Shown here piece by piece: positions 760 to 38,411 of a DNA stretch of 64,000 bases; position 1 is the stretch's first letter, and the number at the start of each line of letters is the position of its first letter. The stretch lies in contig CM000431.1 in the NCBI GenBank assembly GCA_000165345.1, positions 608,001 through 672,000 on the forward strand, in the 5' to 3' direction. The position numbers and the translations under genes were made by a program. The notes beneath the pieces are model-generated. The model did not search any database. It was not told the DNA's origin and worked only from the letters and a program-made list of their open reading frames with translations.

Positions 760-979
760 AAATCGAACGAAGAGTCAGAAGTCCATACTTGACGAAATTT
801 GAAAACTGTAACAAATCAAACTGCTAGGAGACCTATGTAATAAGTAGAACAAGACATTGTCTACCTGTTGGCGCAAAAAAAAAAAAAATCGTAATTGTAA
901 CGAACATATAAGAGAATAAATACGAAGGAAACTAAAAATGTCCGTATTGGCTTTGCGTTCCAAGAAATATATTCATTAT

Positions 980-1373
980 TTAATAATGACTTTTATTATT
1001 GAAAAACAGCACTGTTAAATATCTATTTAATGTTAACCTCTCAAATTAGATTTAAATTAACATACCTTCCAGAAACTTGAAAACCAGAAAGCTGTTTCAG
1101 CGCACTTTTTGCATCCTCAATCTCATCATATACTACAAATGCTGTGCCCTTTGTATCTTCACCTACACCTCTATTTCAGACTCTTCATGAACAAGAAATT
1201 TTGTTAGCCTTACCTTCTTATTTGTCTAATTGTTCCATGTCTCCCAAAAATGTCGTAGAGATCGGTAGAAGAGATATCATATGGAAGTTGCCTAAGGTAA
1301 ATAATAGATGAATTTAAAACAATGCATTTTACATTTCGTACCTTACATATAGAATTCGGCTATTATTAGACAT
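980..1373 (-). CDS. SF3B6: Splicing factor 3B subunit 6 (SF3b14a/p14). Four exons: complement(1342..1373, 1214..1291, 1066..1170, 980..1022).
   Basis: Hand-spliced product: [85 protein letters not shown]. It aligns without gaps to the p14 RRM (RILYIRNLPY...IRQIR.G....GTAYVVY.DI.DAK.A...LSGF.V..RYLVVLYY). The three introns are 50, 43 and 43 nt, with donors GTACGA, GTAAGG and GTATGT and acceptors TAG, TAG and TAG. Confidence 0.6.
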
Positions 1374-1631
1374 TGAGTAGTTTAAACTAAACAAAATCGG
1401 ATAATGCCTTAGTAATATATTCTTAATGTTATAAAAGTTACCTTAAATAATACTATTATATTGCCATAGCTTAAAATTAATGTCAATAATAGTAATAGTT
1501 CAAATATAGGCGGTGTGTAAGTAGCGCTTTCCTACACACAATTTTACTCGCGCGTGCAACGTAGAAGTTATAATATTGCGGAATGTCGCACCATCGATTT
1601 CCTCTAATCCTCATCTAAGGATAATTTCAAG

Positions 1632-4625
1632 ATGAGTGGGTTAGCCAGCTCTCCCTCTATTGGGAAGACAATACTATTTGAGAAGAATAACGATTGGGGG
1701 CTTAATTTTGATTTGGGCGAGCTCGAAATATATGAAAATCAGGACTTAAAAACTAGACTAAAGGAATTAATTTCGCCATTCGAAAACACATTTTCTTCTG
1801 TATCTACTCTAGAATACTTGCATCCATTTACATTGAAGTTCCGAAGCGAGATTTTGGAAAAGAAATTTGAAAAAAAATTTAGAAAAAGAACAGAAATTGG
1901 TATTTTTTGGATTGGATTGCTAACATTATTTTTAATAATCTTGGATATCTTATTAGAAGTTTACAATCAAAAAGTAAATGAAGTTTCTAATAGTTCAGTA
2001 ACTGCTTATTTTATAATTTGTGGTGTAGTTGCAACATGCTCATTATTTCTAATCATATCATTTTTCGTCAATTTCTTAAATAAACATTTGGAAGTTATAT
2101 TTACATCAACTACAATAATAACAACAATACTTAATATTACAGCAGGAAATTTATTACTAGATGTCTCACTTTCCCCTAATAATAACTACGATCCTGCTGT
2201 CCAGAATTCCAGATCACTTATTGTAATCACAATTTGCTCGATTCTGCATTTTATGTTACCAATTTCTTTTATGAGTATATTAATTTATTCAATAACGAGT
2301 ATCTCATTCTATATTATATTGGTCCCTTCTATGCTGATGCCTATTCCTAACGAAACTCAATACGTATCCACAACAATTTATCTTTTTGTGTTCTGTTTTG
2401 TATGTATTTTGGCTAAAAGAGTTAACGTGAGCTCTTCTAGAAGAGACTTTTTTAACATTAATTTAGTTAAAGCAGAAATGCAAATATTGGAGAATTCTAT
2501 GAATCAAACACCTAAATCTACAATGATCGAAGGAACATTAGCTAACATCAATAAGGTTCAACTATTTCTTCGCTATTTAAATACTTCCTGCACAAAGGGA
2601 ATAAATCGTAAAATGTTACATGACGCAATGGTAGACCTGACTTCTGCTCAAGTCACTTTATGTAGGTCAGATGATATTTATGCAGTTGATCCAGTTGCGA
2701 TTTTCCTACCGCAGTCACTTCAGTCAAATGTGCCGCAAACCCCTAGACAATCTAAGGTTAGAATAATAGGTAGTGGAGATGTAACTCCAAAAGAAAATTG
2801 CTCTCCAACTGCTTCTCAAAAGATAAAACAAGAGTTGGGTATATCTTATGATGTTAGAATTCCTATATCTCCTAATTCTCCAAAGTCAATGGGGCAGTTT
2901 TTATCTCCAAAGTCGCACGAGAACAAGTCAAGTTATATAAGCGTTGATTCCATATCAGCCAGAAGGAATACAGAATCAAGGGCTACTGTTACATCGATTC
3001 CTGGCCCTTCTCGTCGAAGACTCTCAATGATGATTGCTACTGCAGGAGAGAACTCTTCAACACTTATTGATCCGTCCGTTGAAAAGGTGAGAGAGTATAT
3101 TACTGCAGAATTTACTAAATCGTCTGCATCTAGAAGAGAGGTTTTATATGCTTCTAAAGTTTTTGATGGACCGGCCGCAAACCCAAGCAATACTAATGAA
3201 AAGATCAAGACTACATCTCAAAATTTGGATACAAATCATATAGTGGAAAGTATGATTTCCCGTCAAGGACCCTTAGATGAACCTGCAGTTGGTGGAGATA
3301 TTGAAGATAATTATAGACATCTTTTAAAGAATAAGCGTAAGATAGCTCACTTCGCAACTCATCTAGCTTCAAAACTCATTTCTATTAAAGATCCTTCTGG
3401 AACAATCTCATTATTAAGTCAATCATATTTTAATGAAACTAATCCACATAATTTTACGCTACCTGAACTTCCCAAAGGTGTTGGTACAGAACTTCATTCT
3501 GATTTAGATAGGGCATTGCAACTTATGAATAACCAGTATTCTTCTAATTGGGATTTGGACATGTGGAGGCTAAACGAATTAACAAAAGGTAATTGCCTTT
3601 CAGTGGCAGGACTATATATGCTACACTTGATTGCATTAGAAGAAAAAAACCAGGAATCTGGCTTTGATTCATCTAACTTGCCTAGGGGAATTACTACAGC
3701 ATATTCTTCTTCAATTACTGCTCCTTCGAAGCTAATTGGCAATATATCCAAATTCAATATATTTTTTCGAGAATTAAATATTAGATACCTCAACAATAAA
3801 TACCATAACGAATTACACGGCACTAACGTATGCCATCTTGCAATTTGCCTATCAAGAGCGACTGGATTATGGAGCCATTTAGACACTGTAGAGAGGCTTG
3901 CCTCAGTTATTGCATCTCTTGGGCATGATGTAGGCCATATTGGTAGAACAAGCAATTTTCTTGTAAATTCAAGACATATGCTTGCAATTAATTATAATGA
4001 TCGATCTGTCCTTGAAATGTTCCATGCATCCCTAACGTTTCGGATAATCTACTATTATGGAGGCGGAGCTGCTGATTTTTTGCAAAGTTGGGACGCAGAA
4101 CTCCACAAAGAATTTAGAAGAATAGTTATTGAATTAATATTAGAGACAGATATGCATAGGCATTTTGAATGCGTTTCTAGGTTTAGAGTGAGAAGGCAAG
4201 CAGTTGATTGGGACCCATACGGAGATGCTCAAGATAGGCTAATGCTTGCTAGGACATGTTTAAAAGCTGCAGATATCGGACATGGAGCATTGAAATGGAA
4301 TCAACACTATAAGTGGTGCAGATCTGTTGTAGAAGAATTTTTCCTACAAGGAGATGAGGAGAAAGCATTATCGCTGCCCATTTCTCCAATTTGTGATAGG
4401 GAATCTACAGATGTACCAAAGTCGCAGGTTGGATTTTTAAATTTTGTTTGTCTTCCATTGTTCCAAGAATTATGCTATGTAGATGTGGAGGGTGATGTGA
4501 GAAGATGTATTGATCGAATTTTGGAAAATATTAATAACTGGGAAGACATAGCTGAGGCAGGCATTCAGTGGGATAGTGAAGATGCATTAACATTTGTTTC
4601 AGATGAAAAAGCTGATTTACAATAG
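1632..4625 (+). CDS. 3',5'-cyclic-nucleotide phosphodiesterase: an N-terminal multi-pass membrane domain followed by a C-terminal class I PDEase catalytic domain.
   Basis: Single 997-aa ORF. Residues about 110-280 contain several hydrophobic helices. The C-terminal half has the PDE signatures YHNELHGTNVCH, LGHDVGHIGRTSNFLVNS, ETDMHRHFE and AADIGH. Confidence 0.85.
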   Translation: MSGLASSPSIGKTILFEKNNDWGLNFDLGELEIYENQDLKTRLKELISPFENTFSSVSTLEYLHPFTLKFRSEILEKKFEKKFRKRTEIGIFWIGLLTLFLIILDILLEVYNQKVNEVSNSSVTAYFIICGVVATCSLFLIISFFVNFLNKHLEVIFTSTTIITTILNITAGNLLLDVSLSPNNNYDPAVQNSRSLIVITICSILHFMLPISFMSILIYSITSISFYIILVPSMLMPIPNETQYVSTTIYLFVFCFVCILAKRVNVSSSRRDFFNINLVKAEMQILENSMNQTPKSTMIEGTLANINKVQLFLRYLNTSCTKGINRKMLHDAMVDLTSAQVTLCRSDDIYAVDPVAIFLPQSLQSNVPQTPRQSKVRIIGSGDVTPKENCSPTASQKIKQELGISYDVRIPISPNSPKSMGQFLSPKSHENKSSYISVDSISARRNTESRATVTSIPGPSRRRLSMMIATAGENSSTLIDPSVEKVREYITAEFTKSSASRREVLYASKVFDGPAANPSNTNEKIKTTSQNLDTNHIVESMISRQGPLDEPAVGGDIEDNYRHLLKNKRKIAHFATHLASKLISIKDPSGTISLLSQSYFNETNPHNFTLPELPKGVGTELHSDLDRALQLMNNQYSSNWDLDMWRLNELTKGNCLSVAGLYMLHLIALEEKNQESGFDSSNLPRGITTAYSSSITAPSKLIGNISKFNIFFRELNIRYLNNKYHNELHGTNVCHLAICLSRATGLWSHLDTVERLASVIASLGHDVGHIGRTSNFLVNSRHMLAINYNDRSVLEMFHASLTFRIIYYYGGGAADFLQSWDAELHKEFRRIVIELILETDMHRHFECVSRFRVRRQAVDWDPYGDAQDRLMLARTCLKAADIGHGALKWNQHYKWCRSVVEEFFLQGDEEKALSLPISPICDRESTDVPKSQVGFLNFVCLPLFQELCYVDVEGDVRRCIDRILENINNWEDIAEAGIQWDSEDALTFVSDEKADLQ

Positions 4626-38338: not shown

Positions 38339-38411
38339 GGCCTCGTCGTCTAATGGATATGACGTTGGTCTTCGGAACCAAAGGTTGTGGGTTCGAGTCC
38401 CATCGGGGTCG
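38339..38411 (+). tRNA. tRNA-Arg, anticodon UCG.
   Basis: GGCCTCGTCGTCTAATGGATATGACGTTGGTCTTCGGAACCAAAGGTTGTGGGTTCGAGTCCCATCGGGGTCG folds as a 73-nt cloverleaf. It has a 7-bp acceptor stem with two G-U pairs, a D-loop with GG, a 5-bp anticodon stem (TTGGT/ACCAA) and the anticodon loop CTTCGGA, giving anticodon TCG. The T-arm is GTGGG-TTCGAGT-CCCAT. There is no intron. Confidence 0.85.

Follow-up and report, generated by a model that had tools for sequence, protein, structure and literature searches.

The window analysed here, a stretch of 64,000 nucleotides from Cryptosporidium parvum chromosome 3, is AT-rich (~31% G+C) and carries near its start a short minus-strand gene at 1373-980, hereafter the p14 gene, lying between two larger ones. 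Its ATG begins at 1373 and is followed by four coding segments and three GT..AG introns; the spliced coding exons of 32, 78, 105 and 43 nt join into a 258-nt open frame that encodes an 85-aa protein with a single RRM. The features of the locus are as follows.

1632-4625, plus strand: phosphodiesterase gene, intronless, encoding a 997-aa membrane-associated cyclic-nucleotide phosphodiesterase (Pfam PDEase_I)
1374..1631: divergent intergenic region between the p14 ATG (1373, minus strand) and the phosphodiesterase ATG (1632, plus strand)
1342..1373, minus strand: coding exon 1, 32 nt, with the ATG at 1373-1371; ends with the first 2 nt of an R codon
1292..1341, minus strand: intron 1, 50 nt, phase 2, GTACGA...CCTTAG
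1214..1291, minus strand: coding exon 2, 78 nt; end of RNP2, helix 1 and strand 2
1171..1213, minus strand: intron 2, 43 nt, phase 2, GTAAGG...AAATAG
1066..1170, minus strand: coding exon 3, 105 nt; RNP1 KGTAFVVY and helix 2
1023..1065, minus strand: intron 3, 43 nt, phase 2, GTATGT...AAATAG
980..1022, minus strand: coding exon 4, 43 nt, of which 982-980 form the TAA stop; last RRM beta-strand
760..979, minus strand: 3' UTR or intergenic spacer, reaching the start codon at 759 of the following gene on this strand
759 downwards, minus strand: AAA-ATPase-like gene, encoding a 671-aa AAA/P-loop protein, gene span 2355 nt

The initial annotation had proposed this four-exon arrangement and its 85-aa product, and the reconstruction proved exact, with the splice join reproducing the 258-nt frame. 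It had also stated, correctly, that 980-1373 is devoid of ORFs of 60 aa or more, as a scan of both strands verified: the longest ORF inside the gene is a plus-strand frame of 55 aa with a GTG start (1144-1311), and a 62-aa TTG ORF at 775-963 falls outside it. The plus-strand ORFs of 37, 32 and 55 aa inside the region are without support and were taken as chance. The description of the first exon as 32 nt long is right for its coding part and wrong for the transcribed exon, which adds a 5' UTR. That a splicing-factor gene itself needs three splicing events is true and unremarkable. Retention of intron 1 or intron 3 in the p14 pre-mRNA leads to early stops; we found no evidence that the gene is autoregulated.

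Turning to the flanks, the AAA/P-loop gene span exceeds its coding sequence by ~340 nt, and this gene therefore contains introns too. Upstream of it, at ~845-880, a 'GCGCC ... AGACAAT/AGACATT' motif lies beside a homopolymer of 14 nt, read as T on the minus strand, and by eye the motif was also seen at the corresponding position of the C. hominis, C. felis, C. ryanae and C. bovis loci. Within the divergent intergenic region (1374-1631), the blocks TGCGACATT (within GGTGCGACATTCCGCAA), CACGCGCG and TGTGT are invariant in five Cryptosporidium species, the remainder having diverged. These blocks are probably promoter elements common to both divergent genes, and the region is presumed to be a bidirectional promoter together with 5' UTRs. 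A non-coding RNA in the conserved blocks was considered and rejected, as no match there reached an Rfam gathering threshold; the sole such match in the 64-kb window is a tRNA gene at 38339-38411 on the plus strand.

Relationship to SF3B6

The protein encoded at 980-1373 on the minus strand is, with high probability, the C. parvum SF3B6 (p14/SF3b14a), a subunit of SF3b in the U2 snRNP. Its 85-aa sequence matches Pfam RRM_1 over residues 8-74 (1.7e-15), and residues 5-81 align without a gap to residues 18-94 of human p14 (77 residues, 55-57% identity, E 1.5e-25), bearing out the gap-free alignment and the RNP2-like element RILYVRQLPY pointed to in the initial annotation. A sequence search of solved structures in the PDB returned human p14/SF3B6 chains as top matches (E 1.2e-26 to 2e-24, the lowest value belonging to a p14 variant chain). 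The p14 chains scored 88-96 bits; the next RRM proteins, at least one of which is a multi-RRM protein, trailed by 20 or more bits, with 75 at most.

The same picture emerged from an exhaustive HMMER search of 1.84 billion representatives, in which single-RRM matches of 49-68% identity constitute one coherent p14 family and Cryptosporidium-type matches are 82-90% identical. Multi-RRM proteins, at 26-38% identity, attained similar total scores only through the summing of several domains. In a word-indexed search, the informative source names were 'pre-mRNA branch site protein p14', 'SF3B14' or 'splicing factor 3B subunit 6'; the others were generic Cryptosporidium labels ('hypothetical protein', 'RNA recognition family', 'unnamed protein product') or transcript IDs. 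Both family-specific motifs, RNP2 of the type ILY[IV][RK]NLP[YF] with its conserved Tyr and RNP1 of the type [RK]GTAFVVY, are represented, RNP2 as RILYVRQLPY, with Y9 aligned to human Y22, and RNP1 as KGTAFVVY; their columns are invariant or nearly so in an alignment of 41 sequences. Over the RRM core, identity with p14 of very distant eukaryotes amounts to 55-65%.

An AlphaFold2 model built with 41 homologues (pLDDT 85.8) has the beta-alpha-beta-beta-alpha-beta topology of an RRM. In a Foldseek search of the PDB with this model, the best 10 matches were all human p14 (TM 0.83-0.93, rmsd 1.1-1.6 Å), either alone or within U2 snRNP and spliceosome structures, and generic RRMs ranked below them at 23-37% identity. 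Sequence and predicted-fold matches thus agree on an SF3B6/p14 orthologue, as first suggested. The SF3B6 family is known in Apicomplexa, since an inventory of RNA-binding proteins (PMC4630921) already names Plasmodium falciparum PfSF3B6 (PF3D7_1224900) as a member.

Cryptosporidium orthologues and public gene models

The C. parvum locus was compared with those of C. hominis, C. felis, C. ryanae and C. bovis. The gene order phosphodiesterase, p14, AAA-ATPase-like is kept in all four, and all five species accommodate a four-exon model whose three introns agree in position and phase, with exon 2 at 78 nt and exon 3 at 105 nt throughout. Introns of the orthologues measure 41-59 nt and are of the GT..AG type. 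Differences from C. parvum were distributed as follows, codon changes being those of exons 2 and 3 and the third-position fractions giving how many of the nucleotide differences fall at third codon positions.

C. hominis: 7 differing codons, all synonymous; third-position 7/7; exon identity 94-98%, intron identity 92-100%
C. felis: 25 synonymous and 14 non-synonymous codons; third-position 35/49; exon identity 68-83%, intron identity 52-58%
C. ryanae: 26 synonymous and 19 non-synonymous codons; third-position 39/60; exon identity 70%, intron identity 56-58%
C. bovis: 24 synonymous and 16 non-synonymous codons; third-position 33/52; exon identity 71-75%, intron identity 50-58%

Intron 1 of C. 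parvum is 52-58% identical to that of the three distant species, as against 68-83% for exons. The changes fall mostly at third codon positions, and the p14 gene is therefore under purifying selection. At the level of sequence, the codon-position pattern in the four species is the signature of a spliced, translated gene and independently confirms the frame. Three distant p14 homologue loci were all intronless ORFs on metagenome contigs, a result that reflects the sampling bias of ORF-based gene calling; because of this bias, the intronless homologues are not informative on whether the Cryptosporidium intron positions are ancestral.

These comparisons also bear on the donor of intron 1, GTACGA, which had been singled out as weak. 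It does not stand out, since orthologous Cryptosporidium introns use GTACG as well, namely intron 1 of C. hominis (GTACGA) and C. bovis (GTACGC) and intron 3 of C. felis (GTACGT). With the universal 5' end of U1, the site AAG/GTACGA is predicted to pair at -2 to +3 and +5, one pair fewer than would form at AAG/GTATGT of intron 3. Judged by this predicted pairing, the intron 1 donor is the weakest of the three, yet it lies inside the range used by Cryptosporidium and presents no notable anomaly.

The gene had further been described as unannotated, which does not hold, as the exact 85-aa protein and its 394-nt span are in GenBank. The identical protein has been deposited for C. parvum three times (QOY42581.1, from CPATCC_001230; KAL5369581.1; WRK31466.1), named only 'hypothetical protein' or 'RNA recognition motif domain containing protein'. 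On the chromosome-3 records CP044420.1 and CM109963.1, the gene span is 394 nt, the same as 980-1373 in the window, CP044420.1 places the gene start identically, and a 621-nt region around the gene is 100% identical to chromosome 3 of C. parvum IOWA-ATCC. The IOWA-ATCC annotation incorporated 1926 gene-model updates, and its introns are stated to be 100% RNA-seq supported, a general statement rather than one made gene by gene (PMC8744675). The p14 gene and its exact four-exon model are thus already known, and the gene is an ordinary one; since the exact product has been deposited, 'unannotated' applies only to faulty models of older or automatic origin. A literature search on the old gene ID cgd3_2310 found no mention of it.

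Faulty models are numerous among the public records:

Iowa II XP_001388108.1: partial model of 86 aa, with introns 1 and 3 read through
C. hominis CUV05112.1: 89 aa, faulty model
C. tyzzeri TRY52624.1: 79 aa, intron 3 retained
C. hominis PPS93768.1: 74 aa, faulty model
C. ryanae P0023 (L004, 2501-2953): wrong last acceptor, with loss of the final beta-strand
C. bovis P0053 (L005, 2501-2775): 57 aa; starts inside the gene, with loss of part of the RRM
C. hominis UdeA01 (L006, 2501-2813): reads through introns

At least six deposited models are incorrect or incomplete (Iowa II, C. hominis UdeA01, PPS93768.1, C. tyzzeri, C. ryanae and C. bovis), and P0003 from Cryptosporidium sp. 43IA8, likewise a retained-intron form, is a seventh such model. 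In addition, a 640-aa record (P0057), ~82% identical to C. parvum p14, fuses p14 with the downstream ATPase. The re-derived four-exon models restore a complete RRM in C. ryanae, C. bovis and C. hominis. Where a genome is compact and intron-poor, a short gene with several introns is easily given a wrong model, and the product in current C. parvum records could be named more precisely as 'splicing factor 3B subunit 6'; beyond such annotation hygiene, the case is of little importance.

An RRM-only p14 and its proposed place in the spliceosome

The C. parvum protein is essentially a bare RRM, without the N-terminal arm or the C-terminal helix of most orthologues. Only MSNNS precedes RILY, giving an N-extension of 5 residues compared with a median of 19 among 158 p14-like proteins, and the C-extension past the last strand is 6 residues compared with a median of 34. 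An LPPEVN-like arm occurs in 91 of these 158 proteins and a C-extension of at least 20 residues in 122, so that each is typical of the family and not strictly defining. All five Cryptosporidium species are short, with stops within 6-22 residues of the RRM. About 15 family members from outside Cryptosporidium are also short-tailed, some of these records probably being incomplete models; given that short tails are seen elsewhere too, the RRM-only form is uncommon rather than unique.

Around the C. parvum gene, an in-frame stop lies 23 codons upstream of the ATG, with no ATG between, and translation of the 258-nt upstream and 220-nt downstream spacers in all frames gave nothing resembling RLPPEVN. 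The 220 nt before the ATG of the next gene (759) likewise contain no Lys/Glu-rich reading frame. With five species in agreement and flanks that lack coding potential for the missing parts, the truncation of Cryptosporidium SF3B6 is well supported. The C-terminal helix of human p14 reportedly helps to cover the RRM beta-sheet, according to the 2F9D crystal-structure paper. A naturally minimised, RRM-only SF3B6 might conceivably imply that, in the reduced spliceosome of this intron-poor parasite, the interface between p14 and SF3B1 has been remodelled or the RRM sheet lies more exposed, a tentative reading that we consider rather doubtful. The RRM-only form could be of modest interest for the study of reduced spliceosomes and of the still-debated role of p14.

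Could the true gene instead be longer, with further exons upstream or downstream, or alternative splicing, supplying the arm or the C-terminal helix? Most p14 orthologues have 105-140 aa, and the annotated C. felis model, at 101 aa, is slightly longer at both termini, as such a gene would lead one to expect. The in-frame stop before the ATG, three-frame translations of the spacers without an RLPPEVN-like piece or a Lys/Glu-rich helix, and the common end of all five species close to the RRM argue the other way, as does the curated annotation, which has the same 394-nt span; the flanks, moreover, are fully taken up by the neighbouring genes and by putative promoter blocks conserved across species. 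We regard a longer gene as extremely unlikely, and such a model was rejected once both flanks had been translated in all frames. A chance arrangement or decaying pseudogene, in which RRM-like fragments are neither expressed nor spliced, would account for the lack of a long ORF and for the conflict among several public gene models. It is hard to reconcile with a gap-free p14 alignment at E 1e-26, with conserved intron positions, with the strictly synonymous substitutions between C. parvum and C. hominis in exons 2 and 3, or with the third-position excess in three more distant species, where introns diverge faster than exons, and its probability is close to nil.

The truncation itself invites another explanation, namely that a functional single-RRM protein descended from p14 has left SF3b and binds RNA on its own, its beta-sheet being exposed. 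None of the five Cryptosporidium species has either extension, the flanks are without coding potential for them, and p14 is dispensable in some lineages: S. cerevisiae lacks it, and yeast Hsh155 is without the p14-binding motif (PMC5835773). However, the core has remained 55-65% identical to distant p14, with RNP2 (ILYVR.LPY) and RNP1 (KGTAFVVY) intact, a degree of conservation most simply explained by a partner interface that has been kept, and the ~15 short-tailed members outside Cryptosporidium also speak against a loss of the SF3b role through truncation. We judge a free RRM protein to be very unlikely, and favour an SF3B6 subunit that remains part of SF3b.

In humans, p14 is the seventh SF3b subunit. 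The C. parvum pre-mRNA has three short phase-2 GT-AG introns, and its spliced form specifies an 85-aa, near-bare RRM protein. By analogy with human p14, we propose that this protein may bind the N-terminal region of SF3B1 (SF3b155). It would sit beside the SF3B1 HEAT repeats in the U2 snRNP and in the A to Bact spliceosomes, as in human, and early in splicing it could help to recognise the branch site and to stabilise U2. In the human Bact complex, p14 is found at the SF3b periphery, among the N-terminal helices and HEAT repeats of SF3B1 (PMC5835773); it was first identified as contacting the branch-point adenosine and has been invoked in early branch-site recognition (PMC11874996). Turning to the partner, the human p14-binding motif of SF3B1 (residues 373-415) corresponds to chain P of PDB 2F9D, and yeast Hsh155 aligns only after this motif. 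A search with human SF3B1 residues 368-582 gave 980 matches, and none among the best 120 was identified as Cryptosporidium. Most probably, Cryptosporidium p14 plays the same role in the parasite U2 snRNP.

Comparison with known p14 proteins

With respect to the deposited QOY42581.1 (CPATCC_001230), the gene reconstructed here differs in nothing structural; the product name of that record is simply less specific than 'SF3B6'. C. felis P0007, recorded as 'putative splicing factor 3B subunit 6', and the re-derived orthologues of C. ryanae and C. bovis are 62-76% identical to the C. parvum protein and differ from it in an exon 1 of 38 nt, compared with 32 nt in C. parvum, and in short, species-specific C-tails.

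Human SF3B6 (PDB 2F9D and 3LQV, and chains in the 17S U2 snRNP and Bact complexes) has 125 aa, compared with 85 aa in C. parvum. The ~13 first residues of human p14, including the 'RLPPEVN' arm, and its last ~30 residues, which make up the C-terminal helical tail, are absent from the C. parvum protein. Like its human counterpart, the C. parvum protein consists of a single RRM; the two have in common the motifs RNP2 'RILY[IV]R.LPY' and RNP1 '[RK]GTA[FY]VVY', and the predicted C. parvum fold superposes on human p14 at an rmsd of 1.1 Å and a TM of 0.90.
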